A stretch of 64,000 nt of DNA, taken from positions 67,362-131,361 of the forward strand of contig CAWGTU010000004.1 in the NCBI GenBank assembly GCA_963825635.1, read 5' to 3'. Positions 24,065-60,163 of the stretch are shown here, in pieces (within the stretch, counting starts at the first letter, position 1; every line of letters starts with the position of its first letter). A program made the position numbers and the translations under genes. The stretch is from an uncultured Actinomycetes bacterium (GTDB lineage: Bacteria > Actinomycetota > UBA4738 > HRBIN12). The notes below the pieces were generated by a model. It had not been told where the DNA came from. It worked only from the letters and a program-made list of their open reading frames with translations, and did not search any database.

Positions 24065-24085
24065 GCGTGGCGCCATCGTGATCGG

Positions 24086-24172
24086 CGGTGGCCGAGGGAT
24101 TCGAACCCTCGAGGGAGTTGCCCCCCTACACGCTTTCCAGGCGTGTCCCTTCGGCCGCTCGGGCAGGCCACC
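24086..24172 (-). tRNA. tRNA-Ser (anticodon GGA)
   Basis: Hand-folded. Acceptor GGTGGCC/GGCCACC. Anticodon arm CACGC-CTGGAAA-GCGTG. Long variable arm. T arm GAGGG-TTCGAAT-CCCTC. Confidence 0.9.
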
Positions 24173-24861: not shown

Positions 24862-24873
24862 CCACGGTCAGCG

Positions 24874-24963
24874 CGGAGGCGGCGTGATTTGAACACGCGA
24901 GGGGCGGTTTAGACCCCTAACCGCTTTCGAGGCGGTCCCGTTCGTCCGCTCCGGCACGCCTCC
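24874..24963 (-). tRNA. tRNA-Ser (anticodon CGA)
   Basis: Hand-folded. Acceptor GGAGGCG/CGCCTCC. Anticodon arm ACCGC-CTCGAAA-GCGGT. Long variable arm. T arm GCGTG-TTCAAAT-CACGC. Confidence 0.9.
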
Positions 24964-37128: not shown

Positions 37129-37131
37129 GAG

Positions 37132-37206
<75 letters not shown>

Positions 37207-37253
37207 AGGGGGGACAGCATACCCGAGCCCGCTTGCCACGCTATCGTGGCGCG

Positions 37254-37715
37254 ATGACCCTCGCCGCTGGAGATCCCGCGCCTCCGTTCGCCCTCACCGA
37301 CCAGCACGGTGAGACCGTGCGGCTCGAGGACTTCCGGGGACGGAAGCTGCTCGTGTACTTCTATCCGAAGGCCGACACCCCCGGCTGCACCACGCAGTCC
37401 TGCGACGTGCGTGATCATCGCCAGGAGTTCGTCGACCTCGGGCTCGACGTGGTCGGCATCTCGCCCGACGAGCCGAGCGCGCAGCTCGCCTTCGACCGGA
37501 AGTTCTCGCTGGGGTTCCCCTTGCTCGCCGACACCGATCACGCAGTGGCCGACGCCTGGGGCACGTGGGGAGAGAAGAAGCTCTACGGCAAGGCGTACAT
37601 GGGCGTCGTCAGGTCGTCGTTCCTCGTCGACGAGGACGGCCGCATCGAGCAGGCCTGGTACAAGGTCTCGCCCTCGAAGACGGTGCCGAACGCCCATCGG
37701 GCGCTCGCCGGGTGA
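37254..37715 (+). CDS. bcp: Thioredoxin-dependent peroxiredoxin Bcp
   Basis: FYPKADTPGCTTQSC is the peroxidatic Cys motif. The start at MTLAAGDPAPPF aligns with typical Bcp N-termini. TATCGT lies 6 nt upstream. Confidence 0.9.
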   Translation: MTLAAGDPAPPFALTDQHGETVRLEDFRGRKLLVYFYPKADTPGCTTQSCDVRDHRQEFVDLGLDVVGISPDEPSAQLAFDRKFSLGFPLLADTDHAVADAWGTWGEKKLYGKAYMGVVRSSFLVDEDGRIEQAWYKVSPSKTVPNAHRALAG

Positions 37716-37752
37716 CGGCGACCAAACCGTCGCACCTGCGAAGATAGTCTCC

Positions 37753-38238
37753 ATGGCGACGGTGAGTGAGACCCCGCTGCCCGGGCTCGGGGTGCGGTTC
37801 GAGTTCGAGACGAAGGGCGGTAGCCGGCTCGGCGTGCTGCAGCATCAGACGGGACGGGTCGACCTGCTCGTCTACGATCCGCACGACCCAGACTCGGTCA
37901 GCGAATCGTTGGCGCTCGATGAAGAGGACGCGCGCACGCTCGCCGAGCTCCTGGGCTCATCCCGCGTGGTGGAGGACCTCGGCAGGCTTCGCCAGCGCAT
38001 CGAGGGCCTCGCGATCGACTGGCTGCCGATCGGCGACGACTCCCCGTTCGCCGGCCGCACGATCGGCGATACGGGAGCACGGACCCGCACCGGTGTCTCG
38101 ATCGTCGCGATCGTCCGTGGTGAGGACCCGATCCCTGCCCCAGGCCCCGAGCATGGGCTCGAGGCGGGCGACACCCTGGTCGTCGTCGGCACCCCGCGGG
38201 GTATCGAAGACCTCGTCGTGATCCTGCGGACCGGCTAG
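37753..38238 (+). CDS. TrkA-C (RCK C-terminal) domain regulatory protein of a cation:proton antiporter (KhtT-like)
   Basis: ATG at 37753 within ORF 37309..38238. FAGRTIGDTGARTRTGVSIVAIVRG...LEAGDTLVVVG is a TrkA-C fold. Sits immediately upstream of the CPA2 gene. Confidence 0.75.
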   Translation: MATVSETPLPGLGVRFEFETKGGSRLGVLQHQTGRVDLLVYDPHDPDSVSESLALDEEDARTLAELLGSSRVVEDLGRLRQRIEGLAIDWLPIGDDSPFAGRTIGDTGARTRTGVSIVAIVRGEDPIPAPGPEHGLEAGDTLVVVGTPRGIEDLVVILRTG

Positions 38239-38244
38239 ACACGC

Positions 38245-39429
38245 ATGGTCGAGCCGGCGTTCCTGCTGGAGCTCGGCGGGGTCGTGGTGGGGCTGGCGCT
38301 GCTCGCCCGTCTCGCGGCCCGGTACCGGCTCCCGGCGTCGCCGCTGTTCCTGCTCGCCGGCCTCGCGTTCGGCGAGGGCGGCGTCTTCCCCCTGCTGACG
38401 GCCGAGGAGTTCATCGAGCTCGGGGCCGAGGTCGGCGTGATCCTGCTCCTGTTCATGCTCGGGCTCGAGTACTCGGCCGCCGAGCTGACCTCCGGGCTGC
38501 GCCGCCACGCTCCCGCCGGCGTCGTCGACCTCGCGCTGAACTTCACGCCGGGGTTCGTGGCGGGGCTGCTGCTCGGGTGGGGACCGGTCGCGGCGGTATT
38601 CCTGGGGGGCATCACGTACATCTCGTCGTCGGGCATCGTCGCCAGGCTGCTCGACGACCTGCGATGGCTCGGGAACCGCGAGACCGCTGTCGTGATCTCG
38701 ATCCTCGTGATCGAGGATCTTGTGATGGCCGGGTACCTTGCGCTCATCGCCGTGCTCGTGAGCGGGGCAGGCATCGCGGAGGGAGCCCTCACGCTCGCGG
38801 TCGCTCTGACCGCCGTGATCGCCCTGCTGATCGTCGCGCAACGGTGGGGTCACGTCGTCAGCGACGCGCTCTTCCACCGGTCGGACCAGACACTCGTGCT
38901 CACGATCGTGGGGATCACGTTCTTGGTGGCGGGGCTCTCCGAGCTCGTCGGTATCTCGGCGGCCGTCGGCGCCTTCCTCGTGGGGCTGATGCTCTCGGGT
39001 CCGGCTGCGGAGCGGGCCCACGACCTGCTCGGGCCACTGCGGGACCTGTTCGCGGCGATCTTCTTCGTGTTCTTCGGCCTCTCGATCGACCCCGGCACGA
39101 TCCCGCCGATCATCGGCATCGCGGTGCTGCTCGGGGTCGTCACCGCCGCGACGAAGGTGCTGACCGGGTGGTGGAGCGCTCGGCGTGAGGGCATCAAGAC
39201 GAGGGGGCGCTTCCGTGCCGGGGTCGCGCTCGTCGCACGAGGCGAGTTCTCGATCGCGATCGCGGGCATCGGCACGGCCGGCGGACTCGAGCCGGAGCTC
39301 GCGTCGCTGGCCGGCGCCTACGTGCTGCTCATGGCGGTCGCCGGACCATTGGCCGCGAAGGTCGTGGACCCCGTCGTGCGAGGGTGGCAGACGCGGTCTG
39401 CGGCGCGGACGGCGATAGGGAGGGGTTAG
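38245..39429 (+). CDS. Cation:proton antiporter (CPA2 / Kef-type membrane domain)
   Basis: 394 aa, polytopic. ELGAEVGVILLLFMLGLEYS and AVGAFLVGLMLSG are Na_H_exchanger motifs. Confidence 0.85.
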   Translation: MVEPAFLLELGGVVVGLALLARLAARYRLPASPLFLLAGLAFGEGGVFPLLTAEEFIELGAEVGVILLLFMLGLEYSAAELTSGLRRHAPAGVVDLALNFTPGFVAGLLLGWGPVAAVFLGGITYISSSGIVARLLDDLRWLGNRETAVVISILVIEDLVMAGYLALIAVLVSGAGIAEGALTLAVALTAVIALLIVAQRWGHVVSDALFHRSDQTLVLTIVGITFLVAGLSELVGISAAVGAFLVGLMLSGPAAERAHDLLGPLRDLFAAIFFVFFGLSIDPGTIPPIIGIAVLLGVVTAATKVLTGWWSARREGIKTRGRFRAGVALVARGEFSIAIAGIGTAGGLEPELASLAGAYVLLMAVAGPLAAKVVDPVVRGWQTRSAARTAIGRG

Positions 39430-39451
39430 AGGATGCGCGCCGAGGCGGACC

Positions 39452-39497
39452 TTGACGACTCTACATCGTAGAGCTACGCTTCCTCTACATCGTAGAA
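39452..39497 (+). promoter_or_regulatory. Promoter with two copies of a 15-bp palindromic operator upstream of the ABC operon
   Basis: TTGACG (39452-57), 17 nt, then TACGCT (39475-80). CTCTACATCGTAGAG at 39459-73 fills the spacer. CTCTACATCGTAGAA at 39483-97 follows the -10. Confidence 0.6.
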
Positions 39498-39513
39498 GGG
39501 TCGAAGGAAGCGC

Positions 39514-40449
39514 ATGCTGCGGATCGAAGGACTCCGCAAGGCCTACGGGTCGAACGTCGCGCTCGACGGCGTCGACCTCTCGATCGAGCCGGGCGAGATC
39601 GTGGGTCTTCTCGGGCCGAACGGAGCGGGAAAGACCACGCTGGTCTCGATCGTGGCCGGGCTCCGCGCCGCCGACGCCGGGTCCGTGCGGGTCGGGGAGA
39701 TCGACGCGCTCCGGGAGCCGTCTCGGTGTCGGGAGCTGCTCGGTCTCGCGCCGCAGGACCTCGGCATCTACCCCATCATGTCGGCTGAGTCGAACCTCGC
39801 CTACTTCGGCCGACTCGCCGGACTCAGGGGCGATGAGCTCCGCACGCGCGTCCACGAGGTCGCCGAGGCGCTCGACCTGCTCCCGCTGCTCCCCCGGAAG
39901 GCCTCGAGCCTCTCGGGAGGCCAGAAGCGACGCCTCCACACCGCGATGGCGCTCGTACATCGCCCCCAGCTGCTGTTCCTGGACGAACCGACCGTGGGCG
40001 CCGACGTCCGCTCGCGAGGCAGGATCCTCGATGCCGTGAAGGAACTGGCGTCGGCGGGCTGCGCGGTCTGCTACGCGACGCACTACCTCCCCGAGGTCGA
40101 AGAGATCGGTGACTCGGTCGCCGTCATCGAACAGGGCTCCATCGTCGCGCGATCGAGCGTCGGCGAGCTCGTAGCCCGCCACGGGGCGGCCACGCTTCGG
40201 TTGACGTTCGACGGCCCCGCCCCTGAGCTCGACGGATTCGAGATCGACGGCTCGACGCTCACCAAGCGCTGCGAGGATCCGGCGGCGACCGCCGGCGCCG
40301 CGTTGCACGATCTCGGCTCGCTCGCCGCCTCGGTGCGGGAGATCGATATCGTCCGCCCGAGCCTGGAAGCCGCCTACCTGGCCCTGACGGGGCGGCTGTC
40401 GAGCGAGGTCGCCGCTGCGGAGTCGGAGGCTGCGGATGCTGCGGCGTAG
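39514..40449 (+). CDS. ABC transporter ATP-binding protein
   Basis: Walker A GPNGAGKTT, signature LSGGQKRR, Walker B LLFLDEPT. Confidence 0.95.
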   Translation: MLRIEGLRKAYGSNVALDGVDLSIEPGEIVGLLGPNGAGKTTLVSIVAGLRAADAGSVRVGEIDALREPSRCRELLGLAPQDLGIYPIMSAESNLAYFGRLAGLRGDELRTRVHEVAEALDLLPLLPRKASSLSGGQKRRLHTAMALVHRPQLLFLDEPTVGADVRSRGRILDAVKELASAGCAVCYATHYLPEVEEIGDSVAVIEQGSIVARSSVGELVARHGAATLRLTFDGPAPELDGFEIDGSTLTKRCEDPAATAGAALHDLGSLAASVREIDIVRPSLEAAYLALTGRLSSEVAAAESEAADAAA

Positions 40450-41209
40450 CTGGGTCGTCGTCGGTCAGAACGTCGCCCTGTTGCTGGCCGACCCGGCACC
40501 GATCGTCGTCACCACCCTGATGCCGCTGGTGCTGATGTTCTTCCTCAAGGGCACGAGCGAGGCCGTGCTCGTCGGCAGCGGTGTCGAGGGCGCGAACGGC
40601 GCCGAGCAGGTCGTTCCGGGCATGATCGTGCTCTTCGCCTTCTTCGGGGTCGGGTTCCTGGGGACGGCCTTCTTCAGCGAGCACAACTGGGGCACGTGGG
40701 ACCGGCTGCGGGCGAGCGCCGCTCGGCCGATCGAGATCGTGGTCGGGAAGATGCTCCCCTCCGCGATACTCATGCTGGGGCAGATGGTGGTCCTGTTCGC
40801 GGCCGGGGTGAGTCTCCTGGATCTCCACGTGCGTGGCTCTCTCACGGGCGTGGGAGTGATGATGGCGACCGCCACCGTGTTCCTGATCGCGCTGTCGATG
40901 CTCGCCGTCTCGTTCGTGCGAACCGCGAACCAGATGAACGCATTCGTGAACATGGGGGCGATGGTGGTCGCCGGGATCGGTGGCGCCCTCGCGCCGGTCG
41001 AGGTACTGCCCGGTTGGGCACAGACGATCGCGCCGCTGTCCCCCGCCTACTGGATGCTGGACGGATTCAAGCGGGTGGTGATCGAGCCGGGGACGGTGGG
41101 AACGACGCTCGTCCCGGCCGGGGTCACGTTGGCGTTCGCGGTCGGCGCCGCGCTGATCGCCTCCCGTCGATTCCGGATGACCGACGACAAGGTCGGCTGG
41201 GAGGGATAG
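40436..41209 (+). CDS. ABC-2 type transporter permease
   Basis: 257 aa with 6 TM helices. Overlaps the ATPase gene by 14 nt. Confidence 0.85.
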   Translation: MLRRSWVVVGQNVALLLADPAPIVVTTLMPLVLMFFLKGTSEAVLVGSGVEGANGAEQVVPGMIVLFAFFGVGFLGTAFFSEHNWGTWDRLRASAARPIEIVVGKMLPSAILMLGQMVVLFAAGVSLLDLHVRGSLTGVGVMMATATVFLIALSMLAVSFVRTANQMNAFVNMGAMVVAGIGGALAPVEVLPGWAQTIAPLSPAYWMLDGFKRVVIEPGTVGTTLVPAGVTLAFAVGAALIASRRFRMTDDKVGWEG

Positions 41210-41248
41210 GCGACGCTCTCCGAGGAGCAGGAGACGGTCGCGCCGCGC

Positions 41249-41887
41249 TTGACGCGCGAGCGCGTCGTGGCGGCGGCCCTCGCGATCCTCGATCGCGACG
41301 GCCCCGATGGCCTCACGATGCGAGCATTGGGTCGTGACCTCGGCGTCGATCCCATGGCCGCATACCACCACGTTCCCAACAAGGCGGCGATCCTGGACGG
41401 CGTGGTCGAGGCCGTCTGGCGAGAGGTCTCGATCCCCCCGACCGACGATGTCAGCTGGCAGAGATGGCTTCGCGAGCTCGGCGACTCCCTCCGGCGCACG
41501 CTCGTTTCGCATGCGAACGCGCTTCCCATCGTGGCGACGCGAACGAACCTCTCGCGGCCGGGCTTCGACTTGGCCGAGGCGGCGCTCTCGGTCCTCAGGA
41601 GGGCAGGGTTCCCACCCCAGGAGGCGGCACTGGCCCTGAACGCTCTCGGCCAGTTCGTCCTCGGGAGCGCGCTCGCAGAGGTCGGGCTGCCCGGGGAGAG
41701 CGACGACGACGTCTCGGACGAGCGCTTCTCGACAGCATTCGAGGCGGCCGGCGGAGCGGATCGGTACCCCTCACTCGCCGAAGGCCTTGGGCTCAACGTC
41801 GACTTCGACCCGGCCCAGGCCTGGGAGCTCGGGAACGAGGCGCTGATCCGCGGTCTCGAGAGCCGGCTGAGGGAGCTGCGGGAGTGA
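41249..41887 (+). CDS. TetR family transcriptional regulator
   Basis: HTH LTMRALGRDLGVDPMAAYHHVPNKAAIL with a TetR_C-like C-terminus. TTG start as given in the track. Confidence 0.85.
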   Translation: MTRERVVAAALAILDRDGPDGLTMRALGRDLGVDPMAAYHHVPNKAAILDGVVEAVWREVSIPPTDDVSWQRWLRELGDSLRRTLVSHANALPIVATRTNLSRPGFDLAEAALSVLRRAGFPPQEAALALNALGQFVLGSALAEVGLPGESDDDVSDERFSTAFEAAGGADRYPSLAEGLGLNVDFDPAQAWELGNEALIRGLESRLRELRE

Positions 41888-41891
41888 TCGG

Positions 41892-41910
41892 GGTCGGACA
41901 GAGCCCGACC
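41892..41910 (+). terminator. Hairpin after the TetR gene
   Basis: GGTCGG-ACAGAGC-CCGACC, 5 nt after the stop. Confidence 0.35.
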
Positions 41911-41996
41911 TACCGAGGCCGCCGAACCCGCGGGTCATGCGCTCACGCTGATCGCCGAGGCCCTCACGTTCATGGATCGAGCGGGGACATCACCCG

Positions 41997-42050
41997 CGGA
42001 GACGGTGAGATTCGAACTCACGAACCCTGTTAGAGGGTTGACCGCTTAGC
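41997..42050 (-). pseudogene. Degenerate partial copy of tRNA-Ser(GCU): anticodon through the 3' end
   Basis: GCTAAGCGGT-C-AACCCTCTAACAGGGTT-C-GTGAGTTCGAATCTCAC-CGTCTCC-G. The anticodon side and the acceptor 3' strand are identical to the intact gene at 46514-46602. No 5' acceptor strand and no 5' anticodon stem, so no cloverleaf can form. Confidence 0.7.
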
Positions 42051-42155
42051 TCCGTTGGGCCAAGCCCGCTACCTGCGGCGACGCTAGCAGCGCAGTTCAG
42101 CGGCGTGAACCCGGAGACGTCCCGGACCGGCCGGACGCTCTGAGACGCGCCTGAC

Positions 42156-42297
42156 GTTGCCCATCTGTTGCCCACTTCGTCTGCTCGGGCGATACCCGAG
42201 ACTCCTGGCCAACCCCGCAACAGCCACAATACTCGCAACGGACGCCGCAACGCCCTGAGCAGGCAATACGAGGCTGCTCGGCGGCTCGAGTGTTGCC
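42156..42297. repeat. Cluster of GTTGC(CCA)/GCAAC short repeats in a locally AT-richer non-coding stretch
   Basis: GTTGCCCA at 42156 and 42167 (11-nt phasing). GCAAC at 42217, 42235 and 42247. GTTGCC at 42292. Palindrome CTCGGGcgataCCCGAG at 42184-42200. Confidence 0.6.
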
Positions 42298-42319
42298 TGA
42301 ACCCCGCCGGAGAGGAGGC

Positions 42320-42664
42320 CGCCGGGCTCGCGCGGCTCGCGACGTACGTCAGGCCGAACGAGACCGAGCGCGTGGCGCTCGGCGACCTGCCGGTCGACGT
42401 GACGGTGATCGAGACGAGGGGTGCCGACGGGGTGCGGATCCACCGCGACCGGACGATCGAGCACATCGCCGCCTCGCTGGTAGAACCCGTCGACACCACG
42501 GCGCAGGCGATTGCTTCAACGGCGCGCTCGCGGCGCGGTTGCTCGAGAGACTCGAGCTTCACGACGCCCTCGCGAAGGCGGTCGCAGCCGCTGCCCGCTC
42601 CACGACGATCGAGGGGGCGCATGATGGCATGCCCACTCACGCCGACCTCACGCGCGACGACTGA
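42320..42664 (+). pseudogene. pfkB/ribokinase-family kinase remnant (C-terminal third only, frameshifted)
   Basis: One frame gives ..YVRPNETERVALG...VIETRGADGV...EPVDTT. After a 1-nt gap near 42500 the next frame gives GAGDCFNGALAARL...STTIEGA, the pfkB DTxGAGD signature split across frames. The N-terminal two-thirds are absent. Confidence 0.7.
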
Positions 42665-42686
42665 TCGGGCGGCTCGCCGACCAGCG

Positions 42687-45600
42687 TCAGGAGGTCATGG
42701 CGATGACCCTCGCGAGCAGGGTGTCCGTCTCCTCGAGCGCGGGGACCATCCCGCAGCGGTCGAAGATCCCTCGAGCCCGCTGCAGCGCCTCGGACGCTTC
42801 GCCAGGCCGGGAGAGCACGAGCAGGCAGCGGCCCCGGCCGAGCCGTGCGAACGCCTCCTCGATCACGACCCCGAACCCCTCCCAGCGCGCGGCCGCATCG
42901 GCGTAGGCCGAAGCCGCCGATCCGTGATCGCCGCGCGCCTCCGCCAGCGCCGCGCCCGCCGTGACGAGGGCGTGCTCGCCGTAGGGGCGCCGCGGCTGCA
43001 GGTGTCCGGCGATCCGCTCCGCGAGCTCGATCGCCCCGATCGCGAGCCCGGCGCGCACGACCCTCGGCAGGTCCGGGCCGAGCGCGTCCGCGTCACGGAG
43101 CCCGGGAGTGGTATCGATCGCGGTGAGCAGCTCCGCGGCTGCCTCGTACTGGCCCATCGCAGCGCGCACGGCGGCGCTGCACCCGAGGTTCGCGGCGATG
43201 AAGTCGGCGCGGCCGGTACGGGTGGCGGCCTCGACCTGCCAGTCGAGGTACTTCGCCGCCTCGAGGACAGAACCACGGAGCAGGAGCGCGCTCGCCCGAT
43301 TCGAACGAATCTCCATCAGGTCGAACTCGTCCGCCGCCCGCTCAGCGCGCTCTCCCAGCGTCGTCGCCGCCGCGAGCACCCCGTCCAGATCCCCGACGTC
43401 GAGCATCGCCGGGAGCGCGCTAGTCTGGATCGACAGCGCACCGTCCTGCAGCCCTCGCGCCTCGGCGAACCTGAGCCCCTCCCCGAAGACCTCGAGGGCC
43501 GCCGTCGGCCCCTCGAAGCTCCAGATCTCGACGCCGAGGTTGTTGTAGATCATCGATGTCGTCCGACCCTGGCCGGCCTGAGCTCCCAGCTCGATCGCTT
43601 CGCGGAAGTCCGCTAGGCCCCCGGCGTCGCCCTTCACGCATCGAGCGCCCGCCCGGTAGGCGAGGGCCCGAGCGGGGATCGGAAGGCCGGCCTCGGCGGC
43701 GAGCGTGATCGCCCGCTCTGCGAGCGCGATCGCCTCGTCCGGCTGACCGGTGCTGAGCAGATCGAACGCCACGGTCGCGAGCGCGTCCAGGAGCTCCGGG
43801 CTCGTGGGGAGGGACTCGAGCCACGAGAGCAGCTCGCGCCGGAGCTCGGACACGCCCTCGATGTTCAGGCGCTGGAGCACGGCCGAACGCGTGTTCTGCG
43901 CGCGGGCAGCGGCGAGCGTATCCCCGCGCGCAAGGAACATCTCGATCGCGCCCTCGAGCGCCTCGTTGGCATCGACGTACCGCGCGGCGTGGAACGCGGC
44001 CTCGCCGAACCGGGCCAGCGCGGCCGGGCGTTCCTCGTCTTCGTCCGGAAGGAGCGCCAGCGCTCGCTCGAACGCCTCCAAGGCCGCCGCGGTGTCCAGA
44101 TCCAGCGCTCGCTCGCCGGAGAGCGTGAGGAACCGGAACGCCGGTCCGCGGAGCTCGGTCGCCTGATCGTCCCGCCCGGCCGCGGTCACGAGCTCGAGCG
44201 CGGACGTGTAATGATGGGCGAGCACATCCGCGAGGTCCTCCAGGCGGTCCGGCGTCTTCGACTCGATCCACGCCGCCGCCGCCACGTGCCGGGCGGCCCT
44301 CGAGGCTCGGGGGATCTGCGCGTACGCGACGTCGCGCGCGAGCACGTGCCAGAACGCGTACTCGGTCTCACCTTCCATCGACGAGCGTCGGGACGGGCGG
44401 ACGAGTTCCTTGCGCGTCAGTTCGCGCATCACTTCGATGACTTCGGCTTCGGGCAGATCCCCCATCTGCGCCACCGCGCCGACCCAGAAGACCTTGCCGA
44501 CGACCGCCGCGTCGGCGACCATCTCCTTGCGCTCGCGGGGCAACGTATCCAGCCGGGCGGCGATCAACGCCTGCACCGATCCTGGGAGCGGGATCTCGGT
44601 GCCTCCCTCGAGCTCCCAGCTGGAGCCTTTGCGAACGAGGAGCTCTCGATCCTTGAGCAGCCGAACGTACTCCTCCGCGTACAGCGGATTGCCACCCGAC
44701 CGTTCCAGGATCGGGGTCTGTAGCTCCACCGGAATGACCGAGGTCTCGAGCAGAGCGGCGACCAGGCGGGTGGTCTCGTTCGCCGACAGCGGGTCGAGGT
44801 TGATCCGGTTCGCGTTGGGGAGGCCGGCGGCGAACTCCGGATGGCGCTCGAACAGCTCGGGCCGCGCGGTGCCGACGATCATGAGCGGAACCCCGTCGGC
44901 TCGATCGGCCAGATGCTCCACGAAGGCCAGCATCGCGGCATCGGCCCAATGCAGGTCCTCGAACACGACGATCGTCGGCGAGCGCTCCGCGACGTGCTCG
45001 AGGAACCTGCGCCACGCCGTGAAGAGCTCCTCGCGCTCGGCCGAGGACGACGCCTCGATCCCGAGCAGCGGATGGAGGCGTTGACGGAACCAATCCCGTT
45101 CGGGGCCTTCGGGCAGGACGATCTGCAGCTTGGTGTCGGCGGTCTCAGGATCGTCTGACTCCAGGATCCCGGCATGCGCCTTGAGGACCTCGCCCAGAGC
45201 CCAGAACGTGATGCCTTCACCGTACGGGAGGCAGCGACCCTGGCGCCACGCGATCAGGTCGGGTTTGGCATCGATGTACGCGCCCAACTCCGCGACGATC
45301 CTGGACTTGCCGAGCCCAGGCTCACCCACGACGGTCACGAGCTGAGGGGAGTTCGCGGCCACGGCCTTCTCGAAGATCCCTTCGAGAAGCGCAAGATCGA
45401 TCTCTCGACCCACGAACGGCGTGTCGTGGGAGCGGGTGATGTCGGTTCCGAGCCGGGCGAGCGGGCTCTTCGCCCAGAACACCCGGACGACAGCGGACTT
45501 CCCCTTGAGCTCAGCCGGCTCGAGCTCTTCGTAGTCGAAGACGCTCTCGGTCGCCTCATAGGTCCCGAGCCCGACCGCCACGCCCATCTCCGGGGCGACC

Positions 45601-46106
45601 GATTGGATCCGAGAGGCGGTGTTGATCGCGTCTCCGGCCAGCACCCGTTCGCCCGAGCCAGGGCTGGCGCCCAGGCGCACGAGGGTCTCCCCCGTGTTGA
45701 TCCCTACGCGGAGCCGGAGGGCGGCGCCACCGACCGCCTCGAGATCGTTGGCGTCCTCGGCGATCCTGAGCCCGGAGCGCACCGCTCGCTCAGGATCGTC
45801 CTCGTGCGCCGCGGGAACCCCGAAGATCCCGACCACCGCGTCCCCGATGAACTTTTCCACCACGCCGCCATGTCGCTCGATATGCCCTTTGGCCATCGCG
45901 GCGTAGGCCGAGAGCATCCGATCGACGTCTTCGGGATCCGCCGCCTCGGAGGCGCCGGTGAAGCCGACGAGATCGCAGAACAGCGCGGTGACGACCTTGC
46001 GTTCCTCGGCCGCGCCAGGACCCGGTCCCTGGAGCGGCGCACCGCACTCGCCGCAGAACTTCTGACCCGTGACGTTATCCGAGCCGCAGGAGGGGCAGGT
46101 CGTCAT
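42687..46106 (-). CDS. Zn-ribbon / class III adenylate-guanylate cyclase / P-loop (AAA_16, STAND-like) / TPR multidomain protein
   Basis: 1139 aa. CPSCG..CGECG. Cyclase motifs FCDLVGFT, KFIGDAVVG and AGDAINTASR. Walker A GEPGLGKS. Walker B VVFEDLHWAD. A long Ala/Leu-rich helical repeat C-terminus with no LuxR HTH. Confidence 0.85.
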   Translation of the reverse strand: MTTCPSCGSDNVTGQKFCGECGAPLQGPGPGAAEERKVVTALFCDLVGFTGASEAADPEDVDRMLSAYAAMAKGHIERHGGVVEKFIGDAVVGIFGVPAAHEDDPERAVRSGLRIAEDANDLEAVGGAALRLRVGINTGETLVRLGASPGSGERVLAGDAINTASRIQSVAPEMGVAVGLGTYEATESVFDYEELEPAELKGKSAVVRVFWAKSPLARLGTDITRSHDTPFVGREIDLALLEGIFEKAVAANSPQLVTVVGEPGLGKSRIVAELGAYIDAKPDLIAWRQGRCLPYGEGITFWALGEVLKAHAGILESDDPETADTKLQIVLPEGPERDWFRQRLHPLLGIEASSSAEREELFTAWRRFLEHVAERSPTIVVFEDLHWADAAMLAFVEHLADRADGVPLMIVGTARPELFERHPEFAAGLPNANRINLDPLSANETTRLVAALLETSVIPVELQTPILERSGGNPLYAEEYVRLLKDRELLVRKGSSWELEGGTEIPLPGSVQALIAARLDTLPRERKEMVADAAVVGKVFWVGAVAQMGDLPEAEVIEVMRELTRKELVRPSRRSSMEGETEYAFWHVLARDVAYAQIPRASRAARHVAAAAWIESKTPDRLEDLADVLAHHYTSALELVTAAGRDDQATELRGPAFRFLTLSGERALDLDTAAALEAFERALALLPDEDEERPAALARFGEAAFHAARYVDANEALEGAIEMFLARGDTLAAARAQNTRSAVLQRLNIEGVSELRRELLSWLESLPTSPELLDALATVAFDLLSTGQPDEAIALAERAITLAAEAGLPIPARALAYRAGARCVKGDAGGLADFREAIELGAQAGQGRTTSMIYNNLGVEIWSFEGPTAALEVFGEGLRFAEARGLQDGALSIQTSALPAMLDVGDLDGVLAAATTLGERAERAADEFDLMEIRSNRASALLLRGSVLEAAKYLDWQVEAATRTGRADFIAANLGCSAAVRAAMGQYEAAAELLTAIDTTPGLRDADALGPDLPRVVRAGLAIGAIELAERIAGHLQPRRPYGEHALVTAGAALAEARGDHGSAASAYADAAARWEGFGVVIEEAFARLGRGRCLLVLSRPGEASEALQRARGIFDRCGMVPALEETDTLLARVIAMTS

Positions 46107-46314
46107 CGGCCGAGCCTAGTACGCAGGCCCAGCCCCGACCCCGACGACGCTCGCTTCGGAGCATGCTCAGCTCCGGATCCCATCGATGGCACCCGGCATT
46201 CGAGCCTGCTCCCAGGATCCTCGGGGTGCCGCGAGGCTCCGGGGGGAAATGGTCACCACTGACTCGCAGAACGGCTCGCTCGCGGCCCCGATCGGGATGC
46301 TTCTGGTCCTCTAC

Positions 46315-46347
46315 CTCCAGACCACCGCCCTCTCCAGACCACCGCCC
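46315..46347 (+). repeat. Tandem 16-nt direct repeat CTCCAGACCACCGCCC x2
   Basis: Read directly within the ~400-nt non-coding stretch between the cyclase gene and tRNA-Ser(GCU). Confidence 0.6.
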
Positions 46348-46513
46348 CTACCGGAGCGCAGCCCTGACCGGGAGCATCGCGGAGGAAGAAGTGCCCCTCG
46401 AGGACCTCGCGTCGGCGGCCGACGTCTCGACGCCCAGCCCGGCCGAAGGGGCCCACGAGAAGGACCGCGGCCGGGGTGGGATCGGCAGGGAAGCCTTGAT
46501 GTCGTCCTACCAG

Positions 46514-46602
46514 CGGAGACGCAGGGATTCGAACCCTGGACGGAACTTTCACCCCGTAACCGCTTAGCAGGCGGCTCCTTTCGGCCACTCAGGCACGTCT
46601 CC
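46514..46602 (-). tRNA. tRNA-Ser (anticodon GCU)
   Basis: Hand-folded. Acceptor GGAGACG/CGTCTCC. Anticodon arm GCCGC-CTGCTAA-GCGGT. Long variable arm. T arm CAGGG-TTCGAAT-CCCTG. Confidence 0.9.
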
Positions 46603-46653: not shown

Positions 46654-47841
46654 ATGCCCGACGTGGTCATCGTGGGAGGCGGCGTGATCGGCGCCGCGTG
46701 CGCGTACGAGCTCACCTCCCGTGGCGCATCCGTGACCCTGCTGGAACGCGATCACCTCGCGGCGCACGCGTCGGGCCGCAACCAAGGGCTGTGGGTCCTG
46801 CCCGAGGACGATGTGAACGTGCCGATGGCCCGGGCGAGCCTCGAGACGTACCGGGGTGTGGCTGCCCAGGCGCCGATCGACGTGCAGCTCGACGACGAGC
46901 CGGTGGGCACGGTGCTCGTCGCGATGAACGCCCGCGACGTTCGCGCGGCCCACGAGGCCGTCACCCGCGCCGAACGCCACGGCTTCGTCGTCGACGACAT
47001 CTCGTCCCCGGGCGACATCCGCGAGCACGAGCCCGGAGTGACCCGCAACGTGGCCGGCGCGTGGCTCGTGCACGTCGGGCACCGGCTCGATCCCGGCGCC
47101 CTCACGGTGGCCCTCGCGCGCTCGGCCGCCGACCGAGGTGCCGAGATCCGTCATCACCTGCACGCTCGAGGACTCGCTGTCCGCGACGAGACCGTCATCG
47201 GGGTGGTCACGGACGACGGCGTGGTCGAGGCCGACACGACGATCGTGGCCGCCGGACCATGGAGCTCCCCGCTCCTCGAGCAGGTGGGCGTGCATCTTCC
47301 GATCGTGGGAGCGCGTGGATGGCTCGTGCGCGTGGCGCCTCGCCGGCCTCACCTGCTGACGCATCTCGTCGAGGCTGCAGGGCCGCACGCGGCCCTGCAC
47401 GACGACGGCCTTCCTCTCTGGCCGACGGCCGCCGACGTCGTCTCCGAGGGGGAACCCCGGAGTGAGATCGGGGCCCTGCTGCATCCCCACCGGGACGGCC
47501 GCACGATCGTGATCGGGTCGACCCGGCAGATCTGGCTGACCCCCGAGCCTCCGGAGGAGCGGATCGTCGCCCGGGTGCTCGAGGCCGCGATCGAGCTCGT
47601 GCCCGAGGTCGCCGAGGCGCGCGTGCGGTCTTCGTGGTGGGGGCTCAGGCCGCTGACGCCCGACGAGCGGCCGCTCGTGGGCTCGGTCCGAGAGGGGCTG
47701 CACGTCGCGACGGGCCACGGTTCCGAAGGCGTGATCCTCGGCGCCGGCACCGCGCAGCTCGTCGCCGCACAGCTCGCCGGCGAACCGCCACCCTTCGACG
47801 CCGCGCCGTACGACCCGCTGCGGTTCCAGGAGGAACGGTGA
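46654..47841 (+). CDS. FAD-dependent oxidoreductase (DAO family, glycine/D-amino-acid oxidase-like)
   Basis: MPDVVIVGGGVIGAACAYEL is the dinucleotide-binding motif. ATG at 46654 within ORF 46186..47841. TAGGCT lies 7 nt upstream. Confidence 0.85.
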   Translation: MPDVVIVGGGVIGAACAYELTSRGASVTLLERDHLAAHASGRNQGLWVLPEDDVNVPMARASLETYRGVAAQAPIDVQLDDEPVGTVLVAMNARDVRAAHEAVTRAERHGFVVDDISSPGDIREHEPGVTRNVAGAWLVHVGHRLDPGALTVALARSAADRGAEIRHHLHARGLAVRDETVIGVVTDDGVVEADTTIVAAGPWSSPLLEQVGVHLPIVGARGWLVRVAPRRPHLLTHLVEAAGPHAALHDDGLPLWPTAADVVSEGEPRSEIGALLHPHRDGRTIVIGSTRQIWLTPEPPEERIVARVLEAAIELVPEVAEARVRSSWWGLRPLTPDERPLVGSVREGLHVATGHGSEGVILGAGTAQLVAAQLAGEPPPFDAAPYDPLRFQEER

Positions 47842-47851
47842 GCGTCGCGGT

Positions 47852-48940
47852 TCAGTGGGCGAGGCGGCCGGCGCGATCGAGCGCCTCGAGCACGCGGTCG
47901 ACGGGCATGGCGAAGTACGTGTGACCGTGGCGCCCGACCGAGTCCTCGGCCGCGACCAGCGCGTTCACGGCCGCTTCCTCCGTTGCCTCCACCGTGGCAC
48001 GGAACAGCGCTGAGAGCGCGTACGTGTGCCGGACCGGCCCATCGACCACGGCGCGCACATCGCGCATCGCCTCGCTCGCATCGAGGCGGTTCGCCGTGGA
48101 GAAGGCCATCATCTGCTCGCCGCTACCGTTCGAGGCGTGTGAGCCGGTCGCGGCGAGCCCGAGGCCGGCCCGGCGGGCGACACGGGTGAGTTGGTGCGGC
48201 AGCAGGGGTGCATCGGTGCCGACCACGACCACGCACGATCCTTCGTGGTGCTCGCGCGGCATCAGGTCGGTCAGTTCCCGTCCGACCGGCACACCGTCGA
48301 TCCGCAGATGCTCGCGACTGCCGTAGTTCGTGAGCACGAGGGCCCCGACCGTGAACCCTCCCTCGTCGATGTCGAGCAGACGCGACGCCGTGCCGATGCC
48401 CCCCTTGAAGTCGAAGCACTGCATGCCGGTGCCTGCGCCGACGTTGCCCTCCTCGACGGGGCCGACGGCCGCCGCGTCGAGGGCGGCCGCGACGTCGTCG
48501 TCGACCAACGGGAACGAGAGCACGTCGGAGAGCCAGGAGTCGTCGCACTCGGAGACCACGGGCATGACCTCCTCGGCACCGATCGGGTCGCGACCGGCGA
48601 TCCAGCGGACCGTCGCGTCGTACGCCTTCCCGATCTGCAGCGACGAGGTCAGCACGATCGGGCTCATCAGCACGCCCCACTCCCGCAACTGGTTCACGCC
48701 GATCAACTCGCCGTACCCGTTGAGGATGTCCACCCCCGCGTAGACCCACTCGCGCCACGGGTATCCCTCGTGAGGGAACAACGCCGTCACCCCCGTGCGG
48801 ACCGCATGGGGATCGCCGCCGGCACCCCGCACCACCGTGCGATGGCCGACGCGCACACCCGACACGTCGGTGATCGCGTTGAGCGGCCCGGGTGTACCGC
48901 TGCCGATCGAGATACCGAGGTCCCGTGCACGGGGCGTCAT
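47852..48940 (-). CDS. P1/S58 family peptidase (DmpA-type aminopeptidase)
   Basis: ITDVSGVRVGH...GVTAL...GAGTGM...GGIGTAS...VVVGTDAPL are DmpA/Ntn-type motifs. Start taken at MTPRARDLG; an alternative ATG is at 48952. Confidence 0.8.
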   Translation of the reverse strand: MTPRARDLGISIGSGTPGPLNAITDVSGVRVGHRTVVRGAGGDPHAVRTGVTALFPHEGYPWREWVYAGVDILNGYGELIGVNQLREWGVLMSPIVLTSSLQIGKAYDATVRWIAGRDPIGAEEVMPVVSECDDSWLSDVLSFPLVDDDVAAALDAAAVGPVEEGNVGAGTGMQCFDFKGGIGTASRLLDIDEGGFTVGALVLTNYGSREHLRIDGVPVGRELTDLMPREHHEGSCVVVVGTDAPLLPHQLTRVARRAGLGLAATGSHASNGSGEQMMAFSTANRLDASEAMRDVRAVVDGPVRHTYALSALFRATVEATEEAAVNALVAAEDSVGRHGHTYFAMPVDRVLEALDRAGRLAH

Positions 48941-56722: not shown

Positions 56723-58357
56723 CTAGCTCGGCATCTTCTTCTTCTTGTCGCGCAGGATCTCGCGCACGCAGTGGTGACCGGGCATACCCGTCACGCCCCC
56801 TCCCGCGTGGGTCGCGCTCGACGCCTGGTAGAGGCCGGCGAGGGGCGAGCGGTAGTCCGCATACCCCACCGCCGGCCGCATGTGGAACAGCTGATCGACC
56901 GTGAGCTCTCCGTGGAAGATGTTGCCACCGATCAGGCCCCAGCCGTCCTGCATCTGCTTCGGACCGATCACCTGGCGTGCTTTCACGCTCCCCTTGAACC
57001 CGGGCGCGACCGCATCCATGCGATCGATCAACCGGTCGGCGTAGGCGTCGAGGTCGGCCGTGTGATCGTCGTCGTCGTCCGCCCAGGTGTGCGGCACCCA
57101 CTGCGTGAACATCGACATCACATGCGTGCCCTCGGGAGCGAGCGTGCGATCGAACACCGTCGGGATCGCCGTGTCGCTGAACGGCAGCGTCGCGGGCTTC
57201 CCGGCGCGAGCCTCCTGGAACCCGCGCTCGAGGTACTCCATGTCGTCGAGCACCTGGATCGCGCCGCCGTGGATCTGCGGGTCGTACTCGGGATCGGCGG
57301 TGAACGTCGGAAGCCGGTCGATCGCGAGGTTGATCTTCACGGTGCCGCTGCGGGTCTTCCAGTGCTCGATGTCGTGCACGAACTCGCTGGGGAGCTCGTG
57401 GCGATCGATCTGGTCGAGGAACGTGATCTTCGGATGCACGGCGGTGACGACGAGTGGGGCCGTCAGCTCCTCGCCCCCCTCGAGCACCACGCCGTGTGCT
57501 CGTCCGTTCGTCGCGAGGATCGTCCGGACCCGCGCGTTCGTGCGGACCTCGGCGCCGAAATGGCGCGCGGACCCCTCGCACGCCGCGCTCACGGCGCCCA
57601 TGCCCCCCTCGGGGTAGCCCCACGAGGCGATCTGTCCGTCGCCGACGTCGCCGACCGAGTGATGCATCAGCACGTACGCCGTGCCGGGCGCCTCGGGGCC
57701 GGCCCACGTGCCGATGATGCCGTTGACGGCCATGAAGCCCTTGAAGACCGGGGACTCGAACCACCGGTCGAGCAGGTCGGCGGCGCTCATCGTGAACAGA
57801 CGGGTGATGTCGGCGACGGTGCGCTCGTCGAGCTCCTTGCGGAGCATCCACCCGAGCTGGCCGAGATCCTTGATGTCGCGGGGCGAGCGCGAACCGAGGT
57901 GCGGCGGGGTCTGCATCAGCAGCGGGCCAAGGATCTCGCCGATGCGGCCCATCCATGCCTCGTACTCGAAGTAGACGTCGGCGTCCTTCTTCGAGAAGGG
58001 CGCGATCGACTCTCGGGTCTTCTGCTCGCTCTCGTGGCGCACGATCGAGGAGCCGTCGGCGAGCGGCAGGTATCCCAGGCCCTGTGGGTAGACCTTGTAG
58101 CCGAAGCGCTCGAGCTGCAGATCGCGCTGGATCGTCGGCGGCATGAGGCTCATCACGTAGCTGAGCGTCGTGACCTTCACGCCGGGGAGCTCATCGGGCC
58201 ACGGTTCCATCGTGTCGGCCGCGCCGCCGGTCTTGTGCCGTGCCTCGAGCACCACGACGTCGGCGCCGAACTTCGCGAGGTACGCCGCCGTGATCAGACC
58301 GTTGTGGCCACCGCCGACGACGATCGCGTCGTATCGGTTCGCCTGCTGCTGTGCCAC
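56723..58357 (-). CDS. Phytoene desaturase-family (CrtI-like) NAD(P)/FAD-dependent oxidoreductase, copy 1
   Basis: YDAIVVGGGHNGL is the dinucleotide motif. 544 aa. The C-terminus ASSATHAGGGVTG is typical of the family. Confidence 0.85.
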   Translation of the reverse strand: MAQQQANRYDAIVVGGGHNGLITAAYLAKFGADVVVLEARHKTGGAADTMEPWPDELPGVKVTTLSYVMSLMPPTIQRDLQLERFGYKVYPQGLGYLPLADGSSIVRHESEQKTRESIAPFSKKDADVYFEYEAWMGRIGEILGPLLMQTPPHLGSRSPRDIKDLGQLGWMLRKELDERTVADITRLFTMSAADLLDRWFESPVFKGFMAVNGIIGTWAGPEAPGTAYVLMHHSVGDVGDGQIASWGYPEGGMGAVSAACEGSARHFGAEVRTNARVRTILATNGRAHGVVLEGGEELTAPLVVTAVHPKITFLDQIDRHELPSEFVHDIEHWKTRSGTVKINLAIDRLPTFTADPEYDPQIHGGAIQVLDDMEYLERGFQEARAGKPATLPFSDTAIPTVFDRTLAPEGTHVMSMFTQWVPHTWADDDDDHTADLDAYADRLIDRMDAVAPGFKGSVKARQVIGPKQMQDGWGLIGGNIFHGELTVDQLFHMRPAVGYADYRSPLAGLYQASSATHAGGGVTGMPGHHCVREILRDKKKKMPS

Positions 58358-58361
58358 GCCC

Positions 58362-59999
58362 CTACCTCTTCCTGTTCCGTGCCTTCTTGTCCCTGATGAT
58401 CTCGCGCACGCAGTGGTGACCGGGCAGGCCGGTCACGCCGCCACCAGCGTGGGTCGCGCTCGACGCCTGATAGAGGCCGTCGATCGGCGATCGGTAGTCG
58501 GCGTAGCCGACCGCCGGCCGCATGTGGAAGAGCTGATCGACCGTGAGCTCTCCGTGGAAGATGTTCCCGCCGATCAGATCCCAGCCCTCTTGCATCTGCT
58601 TCGGACCGAGGATCTGGCGCGCGAGCACGCTGTCGCGGAAGCCGGGGGCGACCTCGTCCATGTGGTCGATCAGGCGATCGGCATAGGCCTCGAGCTCCTC
58701 GGTGTGGTCGTCCTCGTCGTCGGCCCACTCCGCCGGGCACCACTGGGTGAACATCGAGACCGTGTGGATGCCCTCGGGCGCGAGCGTGGTGTCGACGACC
58801 GTCGGGATCTCGGTGTCGCTGAACGGACGCGTCGCCGCCTCACCGAAGCGGGCCTGCTGATAGGCCTGCTCGAGCTGCTCCACGTCGTCGAGCAGCTCGA
58901 TCGCTCCGCCGTGGATCTCGGGGTCGAAGTCCGGGTCGGCCGTGAAGGTCGGCAGCCGGTCGATCGCGAGGTTGACCTTCACGGTTCCGCTGCGGGTCTT
59001 CCAGTGCTCGATGTCGTGAACGAACGAGCTCGGCAGCTCGGCGCGGTCGAGCTGCTGAAGGAACGTGATCTTCGGGTGCACGGCGGTGACGACCAACGGA
59101 GCCCGGACCTCCTCGCCGCCGTCGAGGACGACGCCGGTGACACGGCCGTTCGACGTGGTGATCGTCTGGACCGCCGCGTCGACGCGGACCTCGGCGCCGA
59201 AGAACTTCGCCGACTCCTCGCAGGCCTTCGAGACGGCCCCCATGCCGCCTTCCATGAAGCCCCAGCTCGCCACCTGCCCGTCGCCGATGTCGCCGACGGA
59301 GTGATGCATCAGCACGTACGCCGTGCCGGGCGCGTCGGGGCCGGCCCACGTGCCGATGATGCCGTTGACCGCCATGAACCCCTTCATCTCGGGGGATTCG
59401 AACCATCGCTCCAGCAGCTCGGTCGCGCTCATCGTGAACAGGCGCGTGACGTCGGCCACGGTGGCCTCGTCGACGTGCGAGCGGAGCTTCCACGCGAGCT
59501 TGCCGAGGTCCCACAGGTCGGCGGGCTTCTTCGAGCCGACATGGGGCGGCGTCTCCATCAGCATCGGCCCGAGGATGTCGGAGATGCGCGAGATCCACCC
59601 GTAGAACTCGAAGTAGGCGTCGGCGTCGCGCTTGGAGACCTTCGCGATCGACTCCCGGGTCGTGCGATCGTCCTCGGCCTGGATGATCGAACCTCCCCCT
59701 CGCATCGGCATGTACCCCTGGCCGAGGGGGAGGAGCTTGAAGCCGAACCGCTCCAGCTGCAGCTCGCGGCGGAGCGACGGCGGCATCAGGCTCATCGTGT
59801 AGCTCAGCGTGTTGACCTTGACGCCGGGATACTCGTCGGGCCACGGCTCGCTCGTGTCGGCGGCGCCGCCGGTCTTGTGGCGCTTCTCGAGCACGAGCGT
59901 GCGCGCGCCACGCTTGGCTAGGAGCGCGGCGGCGACGAGTCCGTTGTGCCCGCCGCCGATCACGATCGCGTCGTACCGGTTCCCCTGCTGCTGCGACAT
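58362..59999 (-). CDS. Phytoene desaturase-family (CrtI-like) oxidoreductase, copy 2 (tandem paralog)
   Basis: ORF 58362..60182 trimmed to MSQQQGNRYDAIVIGGGHNGL (59999). Collinear with copy 1 over its full length. Confidence 0.85.
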   Translation of the reverse strand: MSQQQGNRYDAIVIGGGHNGLVAAALLAKRGARTLVLEKRHKTGGAADTSEPWPDEYPGVKVNTLSYTMSLMPPSLRRELQLERFGFKLLPLGQGYMPMRGGGSIIQAEDDRTTRESIAKVSKRDADAYFEFYGWISRISDILGPMLMETPPHVGSKKPADLWDLGKLAWKLRSHVDEATVADVTRLFTMSATELLERWFESPEMKGFMAVNGIIGTWAGPDAPGTAYVLMHHSVGDIGDGQVASWGFMEGGMGAVSKACEESAKFFGAEVRVDAAVQTITTSNGRVTGVVLDGGEEVRAPLVVTAVHPKITFLQQLDRAELPSSFVHDIEHWKTRSGTVKVNLAIDRLPTFTADPDFDPEIHGGAIELLDDVEQLEQAYQQARFGEAATRPFSDTEIPTVVDTTLAPEGIHTVSMFTQWCPAEWADDEDDHTEELEAYADRLIDHMDEVAPGFRDSVLARQILGPKQMQEGWDLIGGNIFHGELTVDQLFHMRPAVGYADYRSPIDGLYQASSATHAGGGVTGLPGHHCVREIIRDKKARNRKR

Positions 60000-60163
60000 A
60001 TTGAATCTCCGTTCAAACGGGTAGGCGAAGCCTACACCGGCCTCGCGAGCGGGGGTATCCGGTCCTGTGGAGTTCGTGCCATCGGGGTGAACCCACCGGC
60101 CGGCGTGGCGACCATAATGGCTGGGCCATAGGGTCTCCATACCGCCAGACGGAAGGATCGATC

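Follow-up and report, generated by a model that had tools for sequence, protein, structure and literature searches.

Integrative elements and their remnants at tRNA genes

Actinomycetes host integrative elements at tRNA genes, such as pSAM2, which resides at a tRNA-Pro gene, and SLP1, which resides at a tRNA-Tyr gene, both of them carrying int, xis, rep and tra. Here, we analyse a tRNA-Ser(GCU) gene of an uncultured Actinomycetes bacterium which lies, together with a 54-nt partial copy of itself (the relic), in a stretch of 64,000 nucleotides of contig CAWGTU010000004.1 (hereafter the window, to which all unlabelled positions refer). The interval between the two, 42051-46513, is referred to as the islet. 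In the working gene, a 5′ half native to the host is joined to an imported 3′ half, and the 3′ half that the host had originally has been displaced to the far end of the islet. More generally, the ends of genomic islands are marked by a regenerated tRNA gene and a displaced fragment, and sites centred on the anticodon are common (PMC4383910). Another relevant category is that of the cis-mobilizable elements (CIMEs), which are decayed integrative and conjugative elements (ICEs) or integrative and mobilizable elements (IMEs), still with attL and attR but with the genes for integration and transfer lost (PMC5704250).

When compared with these systems, the islet resembles pSAM2 and SLP1 in its high-G+C actinobacterial host and in the duplication of a tRNA 3′ portion at the ends of the insert, but it carries no int, xis, rep or tra. 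The likeness to the class A islands of Islander (Hudson, Lau & Williams 2015, PMC4383910) is closer in several respects: the tRNA gene is regenerated from host 5′ and element 3′ parts, a 3′ fragment starting at the anticodon marks the far end in the same orientation, the two 3′ parts differ from each other, and the site varies among strains. In the terms used to define such islands, the fragment derives from the same tRNA, on the same replicon and strand (Table 1), and its start at G34 falls into one of the two canonical sublocations, namely the anticodon loop and the junction of T loop and acceptor (PMC4383910). A chimera of host and element with a host-derived fragment is likewise shown, both by the match of the relic to related genomes (53/55) and by the occurrence of the window's 3′ half as a native form elsewhere. 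No tyrosine integrase (PF00589) was found inside the interval and, unlike Islander islands, the islet would for want of an integrase gene fail Islander's own filter; it also differs in being very short (4.46 kb), in consisting mostly of captured core-type chromosome and in that no empty site was recovered.

The interval also fits the description of a CIME, as far as can be judged from its gene content and att-type repeats: integration and transfer genes are lost from 42051-46513, both copies of the att core are present at the 3′ target of a tRNA gene, and the site is one of element accretion and replacement. In contrast to CIMEs, the att relic has acquired point changes, and no resident ICE or actinomycete ICE (AICE) of matching specificity was seen; moreover, CIMEs were defined in Firmicutes, whereas the host of the islet is actinobacterial. 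The identity of the islet as an ICE or AICE in its own right was considered and rejected, as it holds no Rep, FtsK/Tra-like genes or integrase, and its sole intact gene encodes a cyclase-STAND-TPR protein.

A chimeric tRNA-Ser(GCU) gene and its displaced 3′ half

Seven orthologous loci (L001-L007), all from metagenome-assembled genomes of Actinomycetota, were retrieved via the gene for a DAO-family flavin adenine dinucleotide (FAD) oxidoreductase that flanks the tRNA, and each of them has one tRNA-Ser(GCU) gene at the same position. The closest genome-level relatives, L001, L002 and L006, show 92-94 % identity to the window and are collinear with it only from 46557 upward, a point that lies inside the tRNA gene. 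In these three relatives, the intact tRNA-Ser(GCU) gene has a 3′ half to which the relic (41996-42050) can be aligned at 95-96 % identity, with 53 of 55 positions matching, whereas only 40 of 58 aligned columns match when the relic is set against the window's own gene. Since the relic resembles the 3′ half of the relatives and the window gene is divergent there, the working gene is a chimera with a native 5′ half and an imported 3′ half, the relic being the displaced half of the host. The imported type of 3′ half is the native form of tRNA-Ser(GCU) in 18 metagenome contigs of related Actinomycetota, as found by a metagenome scan with a loose pattern, and is as such a genuine functional allele from elsewhere.

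ARAGORN called four tRNA genes in the window, among them a minus-strand tRNA-Ser(gct) (46513-46602), for which the limits according to the Rfam tRNA model are 46514-46602 (55.8 bits, E 3e-10), in agreement with the canonical gene reported by an earlier, sequence-only reading of this DNA. At the relic, where GGA meets GCTAAGCGGT, homology begins exactly at anticodon base G34, and the 3′ halves of the tRNA-Ser(GCU) alleles part ways after GCGGTTA, which places the junction inside a block of 12 nt that has the anticodon loop and 3′ stem at its centre. As judged from the alignment, this block, GCTAAGCGGTTA, is common to the intact gene, the relic (42041-42050) and all relatives, and the crossover would thus be located within 46557-46568. 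A displaced host half with an edge at the level of the anticodon is the signature of integration into the anticodon loop; it supports the islet reading, and with it the view that the partial copy is a displaced att-type tRNA fragment and not a paralogue.

The minus strand of the relic, GCTAAGCGGTCAACCCTCTAACAGGGTTCGTGAGTTCGAATCTCACCGTCTCCG, is laid out as GCTAAGCGGT-CAACCCTCTAACAGGGTTC-GTGAG-TTCGAAT-CTCAC-CGTCTCC-G and spans, just as the sequence-only reading had described, the anticodon, a paired variable arm, the T arm, the 3′ acceptor strand and the discriminator, in the orientation of the intact gene. The compensated changes noted there in the variable arm (ACCCT/AGGGT) and the T stem (GTGAG/CTCAC) can be read directly off the sequence. 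An nhmmer profile of tRNA-Ser(GCU) genes finds the relic with an E value of 1e-7 and, when applied to the window plus ~0.5 Mb of related loci, yields as sole other partial copy the orthologue of the relic in locus L037. In addition, Rfam family RF04351, which is antisense to the 3′ half of plastid tRNA-Ser, matches both the intact gene and the relic. By these matches, the relic is not a chance similarity. It is no longer recognized as a tRNA, since ARAGORN made no call and the Rfam tRNA covariance model gave no match at E up to 10, so that the scan which calls the intact gene leaves out the partial copy.

Compared with the ancestral type, the relics of the window and of L037 carry two private changes each. 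The former has a T>C change after GCGGT, beside the core, and a 1-nt deletion, and the latter has an A>T change inside the core (GCTAAG). Two private changes per relic are in line with a fragment without function that stems from a single event and decays neutrally. The D-loop-like element described upstream of the copy, TTGGCCCAACGGAG, is indeed present at 42051-42064 and is kept in L037, but its likeness to a D arm is not significant in a dinucleotide-shuffle local-alignment test (p = 0.06 for the window and 0.39 for L037).

A captured chromosomal block inside the islet

Of the 4.46 kb that separate the relic from the tRNA gene, 3.88 kb derive from a conserved chromosomal neighbourhood, as a fragment the ends of which are illegitimate. 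This block is 91.1 % identical in blastn to positions 4806-8692 of L014 and 82.5 % identical to L015-L018, and breakpoint alignments show that the homology starts ~10 nt before the stop codon of an upstream gene and ends within pfkB. It contains the last ~10 nt of a DAO-FAO_M-GCV_T gene, a spacer of ~60 nt with a 10-nt deletion relative to L014, a cyclase gene, and the 3′ 363 nt of pfkB. The cyclase gene, the sole intact one in the interval, encodes a protein with a Zn-ribbon, a class III adenylate/guanylate cyclase domain, an AAA_16 (STAND) ATPase domain and TPR repeats, as assigned by Pfam; full-length orthologues exist at 90 %, 82 %, 80 % and 76 % identity within a family of thousands. In the closest of these (90 % and 82 %), the gene order is Rieske oxygenase, beta-lactamase, DAO-FAO_M-GCV_T, cyclase, a convergent 290-aa PfkB kinase and IU_nuc_hydro, a neighbourhood that is conserved and non-mobile-looking. 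The pfkB remnant corresponds to residues 171-290 of the 290-aa orthologue and has one frameshift at ~42500, the L014 PfkB protein giving two high-scoring segment pairs in different frames in tblastn.

These comparisons show that the cargo is of chromosomal origin and truncated. The sequence-only reading had called the cargo unusual, which does not hold: since 3.88 of the 4.46 kb come from conserved chromosome, collinear with L014-L018, it is no unusual island cargo but a gene of housekeeping context with a truncated neighbour. The block was also checked at both ends for terminal repeats and target duplications; by eye, only a CTCCGG hexamer is apparent, which the repeat search does not list and which is treated as chance.

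Multidomain proteins of the class III adenylate cyclase-STAND type are known from Mycobacterium tuberculosis as Rv0386, Rv1358 and Rv2488c. The islet protein resembles them in the order of cyclase, AAA_16-type ATPase and helical repeats, but differs in its N-terminal Zn-ribbon, in ending in TPR repeats and in having no LuxR-type helix-turn-helix domain. Its matches to NCBIfam models are far below the cut-offs, and PADLOC reports only weak matches of the cyclase domain to PycC, the best with 55.6 bits over residues 34-168. Membership in a Pycsar or other defence system was rejected in view of these weak scores, the lack of an effector gene and the fact that the sole neighbour in the islet is the pfkB pseudogene.

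The part of the interval that is not captured chromosome amounts to 332 bp at the tRNA (46181-46513) and 251 bp at the relic (42051-42301). The tRNA-proximal flank, the distribution of which is given in Table 1, is probably a remnant of an arm of the imported element. In L041, it lacks a 139-bp segment (46275-46413), within which the window has a tandem 15-nt repeat, GGCGGTGGTCTGGAG, at 46315-46346. The relic-proximal part is made up of a conserved island end and a 128-bp spacer that sits between this end and the captured block. A pair of TGGGCAAC repeats on the minus strand (42156-42174), with a spacing of 11 bp and ~105-125 bp from the relic core, represents two of the four copies in the 64-kb window; the pair is kept in L037 (1415-1433), exactly where the homology between the window and L037 stops. 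These repeats could be candidate arm-type sites of an integrase. Open reading frames (ORFs) of the two flanks, when inspected by eye in six-frame translation and searched with Pfam, NCBIfam and PADLOC, revealed no recognizable protein or integrase remnant.

A third CGTCTCCG occurs in tRNA orientation at 42112-42119, 62 nt from the relic, and the sequence at 42112-42133 shows an inverted match of 18/22 to the 5′ acceptor and D region of the tRNA. The CGTCTCCG copy was considered as another att-site remnant and set aside as probably chance, as it is not conserved in L037 (by reading) and is at the noise level of repeats in the interval.

Table 1. Positions of the features of the islet and its flanks in the window, with the evidence or defining comparison for each
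Feature	Position	Strand	Basis or content
tRNA-Ser(GCU), intact, chimeric	46514..46602	-	ARAGORN; Rfam 55.8 bits; collinearity; alignment
Native part of tRNA-Ser(GCU)	46557-46602	-	5′ acceptor strand, D arm, anticodon stem-loop
Imported part of tRNA-Ser(GCU)	46514-46556	-	variable arm ACGGGGTGAAAGTTCCGT, T stem CAGGG/CCCTG, 3′ acceptor strand
Identity block GCTAAGCGGTTA	46557..46568	-	anticodon GCT, A37, A38, 3′ anticodon stem and two bases
Relic: displaced native 3′ half of tRNA-Ser(GCU), attR-type, now a pseudogene	41997..42050	-	alignment; nhmmer; no tRNA call
Conserved island end, 123 bp, adjoining the relic	42051..42173	.	L037 98 % over window 40742-42173
Window-only spacer, 128 bp	42174..42301	.	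L037 diverges at 42173, L014 at ~42302
Captured chromosomal block, 3.88 kb	42302..46180	-	blastn to L014-L018; breakpoint alignments
pfkB-family kinase pseudogene	42303..42664	+	Pfam PfkB positions 256-301 of 302; tblastn
Cyclase-STAND-TPR gene, intact, 1139 aa	42687..46106	-	Pfam
tRNA-proximal flank, ~332 bp, no gene	46181..46513	.	absent from L001-L018 (L001-L013 and L014-L018), present in L041
DAO-family FAD oxidoreductase, core flank, divergent from the tRNA	46654..47841	+	Pfam; L001-L007; L020 99.3 %
TetR-family regulator, distal-side flank	41249..41887	+	Pfam; blastn; protein search
ABC-2 permease	40436-41209		Pfam
ABC ATPase	39514-40449		Pfam

Variation among strains at the site

The DNA directly after tRNA-Ser(GCU) is different in every relative, and the same variability is observed between strains that are otherwise nearly identical to the window. 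L020/L039 are 99.3 % identical to it over 14.35 kb without any indel, but they have two other bases in the variable loop and lose all similarity 4 nt past the tRNA; the L039 contig ends 196 bp past the tRNA. In L040, with 99.6 % identity outside the tRNA, the 3′ half is of a third kind, 11 of the 18 differences falling into the 45 nt between 46512 and 46556, and the metagenome contig L042, 99.8 % identical, stops exactly at 46557. The tRNA-Ser(GCU) site is still a hot spot, at which near-identical strains have other 3′ halves and cargo.

Two further loci share parts of the islet. L037 shows 98 % identity from the ABC-2 permease through TetR and the relic to the end of the adjoining 123 bp, and then continues with a different, sulfatase-like gene. 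L041 reaches only 89-93 % identity in the DAO gene, yet it shares the tRNA-proximal flank with the window (minus the 139 bp) and has the same cyclase at 97 % identity (99 % over 1 kb); its identity profile is a mosaic of ~99 % and ~92 % blocks that reaches outside the islet, to a tract of 98-100 % at 47649-47993.

Three independent metagenome assemblies (L020/L039, L040 and L042; window 46509-46557) break 196 bp past the tRNA, at its 3′ end and at the anticodon, respectively, which is what strain-level heterogeneity beginning at the anticodon would produce.

Origin of the islet and competing explanations

It is likely that a tyrosine-integrase element inserted at the anticodon loop, lost its recombination genes and had its interior replaced by a captured chromosomal fragment. 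Such an element would have inserted, once or more, into the anticodon loop of the chromosomal tRNA-Ser(GCU) of a soil actinobacterium, its attP carrying a tRNA-Ser 3′ half of the other allelic type, with the T stem CAGGG/CCCTG. Strand exchange within GCTAAGCGGT(TA) would have joined the host 5′ half to the element 3′ half, giving rise to the working chimera, and the same exchange would have left the original 3′ half of the host at the distal end of the insert, as what is now the relic. The element would then have decayed with the loss of its integrase and any transfer genes, and in the window lineage its interior would have been replaced, via illegitimate recombination, by the 3.9-kb chromosomal piece, while homologous recombination among strains would keep turning the region over. 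Only the two short flanks, ~330 bp by the tRNA and ~250 bp by the relic, may remain as element DNA. Both the integrase as maker of the junction and the order of events are inferred, the former with the indirect support of locus L007, where an integrase lies beside tRNA-Arg(ACG) together with a fragment cut at the anticodon loop, which shows such integrases to be active in this clade. With respect to the earlier proposal that 42051-46513 is a decayed integrative islet, the reading as a tRNA island is upheld by the relic and the chimeric gene, but the interval is not one decayed element, being rather a composite with a captured block.

Several observations weigh against this scenario. As the sequence-only reading had stated, no integrase remains: Pfam, NCBIfam and PADLOC searches of ORFs of at least 80 aa and of the flank ORFs disclosed no integrase, excisionase or transfer gene in 42051-46513, and no integrase adjoins tRNA-Ser(GCU) in any fetched locus. 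Apart from the occurrence of the tRNA-proximal flank in L041, the 332-bp and 251-bp flanks have no match in related loci, viral contigs, phages and plasmids beyond T-arm-like 27-40-mers. An exact empty site, in which TetR is followed by tRNA-Ser and the FAD oxidoreductase, was looked for as suggested earlier and was not found in any relative, L037 having the relic and L041 having the islet, and what follows the intact type-B tRNA, both in L001/L006 and in L002, bears no relation to the window's TetR flank. Finally, no relative deviates in the 5′ half of tRNA-Ser(GCU), so that only the left edge of the relic fixes the junction at the anticodon, and the switch between strains at 46556/46557 is equally compatible with homologous recombination anchored in the tRNA.

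Further searches bear on the same questions. The genes between 34.5 and 49 kb of the window are all otherwise assigned, with no integrase among them, and the integrase of L007 has no tblastn match in the window. As regards a donor element, the exact 37-nt imported variable and T arm was not found in viral or metagenome contigs, a looser pattern of the imported arm matched native tRNA genes only, and a generic tRNA-Ser 3′-half pattern as well as the DAO and cyclase proteins retrieved nothing relevant from viral contigs. L001, L002 and L006 have an unsplit tRNA of ancestral type without the 4.5 kb. A protein search with TetR gave one relative at 99 %, L037, which already has the relic, and next one at 67 %, L038, which has another context and no tRNA.

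The first alternative dispenses with the integrase. Foreign DNA, circular or linear, with a complete foreign tRNA-Ser(GCU) would have recombined via the invariant 5′ half, either by RecA in a Campbell-type event or by a homologous plus an illegitimate crossover; the tRNA would thereby have been duplicated, the distal copy would have lost its 5′ part, and later changes of cargo would be due to homologous replacement, with the tRNA on one side and the relic plus its 123-bp end on the other as anchors. We regard this course of events as unlikely. Homologous crossovers in the 5′ half or the upstream flank would leave no visible trace, since strains do not differ there, and the mosaic of L041 is typical of homologous recombination across the whole region; the illegitimate ends of the cargo and the absence of an integrase from the interval also speak for it. 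Another point concerns the DNA upstream of the relic, where a weak D-arm- or promoter-like resemblance exists and the nhmmer match extends to model position 16, but this resemblance is not significant (see above), and the upstream part would need to have decayed to noise while the adjoining 3′ half kept 53 of 55 positions. In addition, the homology of the relic starts exactly at the anticodon, the classical sublocation for integrases (PMC4383910), and a homology tract of 46 nt is short for a RecA-driven Campbell insertion.

A distinctly doubtful possibility is a tRNA-anchored cassette-exchange locus, at which an integrase acting in trans repeatedly swaps the interior and the tRNA 3′ half between soil Actinomycetota strains. 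The conserved distal end kept in such exchanges may be the relic plus the 123 bp with the paired TGGGCAAC repeats. If this were true, the alternative interiors would be the cyclase-STAND gene and the sulfatase-like gene, and even captured chromosomal fragments would move as integrase-less cassettes.

It is also improbable that the islet itself is a still-mobile, integrase-less CIME-like cassette, with working attL and attR, which is excised, transferred and re-integrated by an integrase supplied in trans. Such mobility would explain an islet in two lineages with flanks ~7 % apart, as L041 shares the tRNA-proximal flank and a nearly identical cyclase despite a much less similar DAO side; however, the identity mosaic extends outside the islet, so that ordinary homologous recombination explains it. 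Strains of different cargo have the 123-bp end and its paired TGGGCAAC repeats in common, but both relics are mutated inside or beside the core, and no circular form, trans-acting integrase or second insertion site is known.

Lastly, a decayed tandem paralogue, which the sequence-only reading had offered as its alternative and in which the distal one of two former tRNA-Ser(GCU) genes degenerated, would account for the common orientation and the compensated stems, but is rejected as extremely improbable because every relative has one gene only at the locus, the relic matches the 3′ half of that single gene in L001, L002 and L006 while the working gene of the window has the divergent half, and the 4.5 kb between the copies is absent from these three genomes.

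The surrounding region

On the distal side, a module of ABC ATPase, ABC-2 permease and TetR (39396-41996) separates the relic from a Na+/H+ exchanger. L001, L002 and L006 lack this module here and contain, in its place, an extracytoplasmic function (ECF) sigma gene or a block of 9.5 kb that includes a WD40-STAND kinase. Among 5.8 billion proteins, TetR has no orthologue between 67 % and 99 % identity, and a DNA homologue at 71 % is located near hemA in L038; the module is not bounded by a tRNA fragment.

The neighbouring tRNA-Arg(ACG) has an anticodon-loop insertion in L007 (1428-7103) and L002 (2831-2894), at the equivalent of window 37131-37229. These insertions are a mirror image of the case described here, since it is the native promoter and 5′ half that were displaced, with the cut behind ..GACTACGGAT, right after the anticodon. 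A Pfam-confirmed tyrosine integrase (1564-2292) directly adjoins the regenerated tRNA-Arg(ACG) of L007, which has a new upstream region. Islands with 5′ fragments are a rare class, accounting for 159 of 3919 in Islander. The distance between tRNA-Arg(ACG) and tRNA-Ser(GCU) ranges from 1 nt in L009, where they are adjacent, to 2.3-2.7 kb in L005 and L003 and 8.4-9.3 kb in L007 and the window, and in L003 AhpC and the Na+/H+ exchanger have changed places with each other; rearrangements are frequent throughout the region between the two tRNA genes (37131-46602 in the window).

Elsewhere in the window, tRNA-Ser genes with the anticodons GGA and CGA lie 700 bp apart on the minus strand (24084-24172 and 24873-24963), and an nhmmer scan found no fragments flanking them. 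Two adjacent minus-strand ORFs of ~570-620 aa at 56723-60227 are tandem paralogues with ~79 % nucleotide identity, as seen from off-diagonal matches to L020, and L015 16143-16774 is ~69 % identical to both.

Implications

The main inference drawn earlier from the letters of this DNA was essentially right, although the islet is a composite remnant and not one decayed element. It is an ordinary decayed case of a well-known kind of genomic island, which leaves the current understanding of island formation unchanged. Its value is that of a worked example, in uncultured soil Actinomycetota, of a tRNA gene as a record of past integrations, with a chimeric working gene and an original 3′ half that is preserved in the form of a datable pseudogene. 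Here, an essential tRNA has different 3′ halves in strains of more than 99 % identity. Islets of this kind would be missed by island finders that depend on an integrase and, as the cargo flanked by the tRNA copies may be secondarily captured chromosome, caution is advisable when tRNA-adjacent genes are called horizontally acquired or defence-related.

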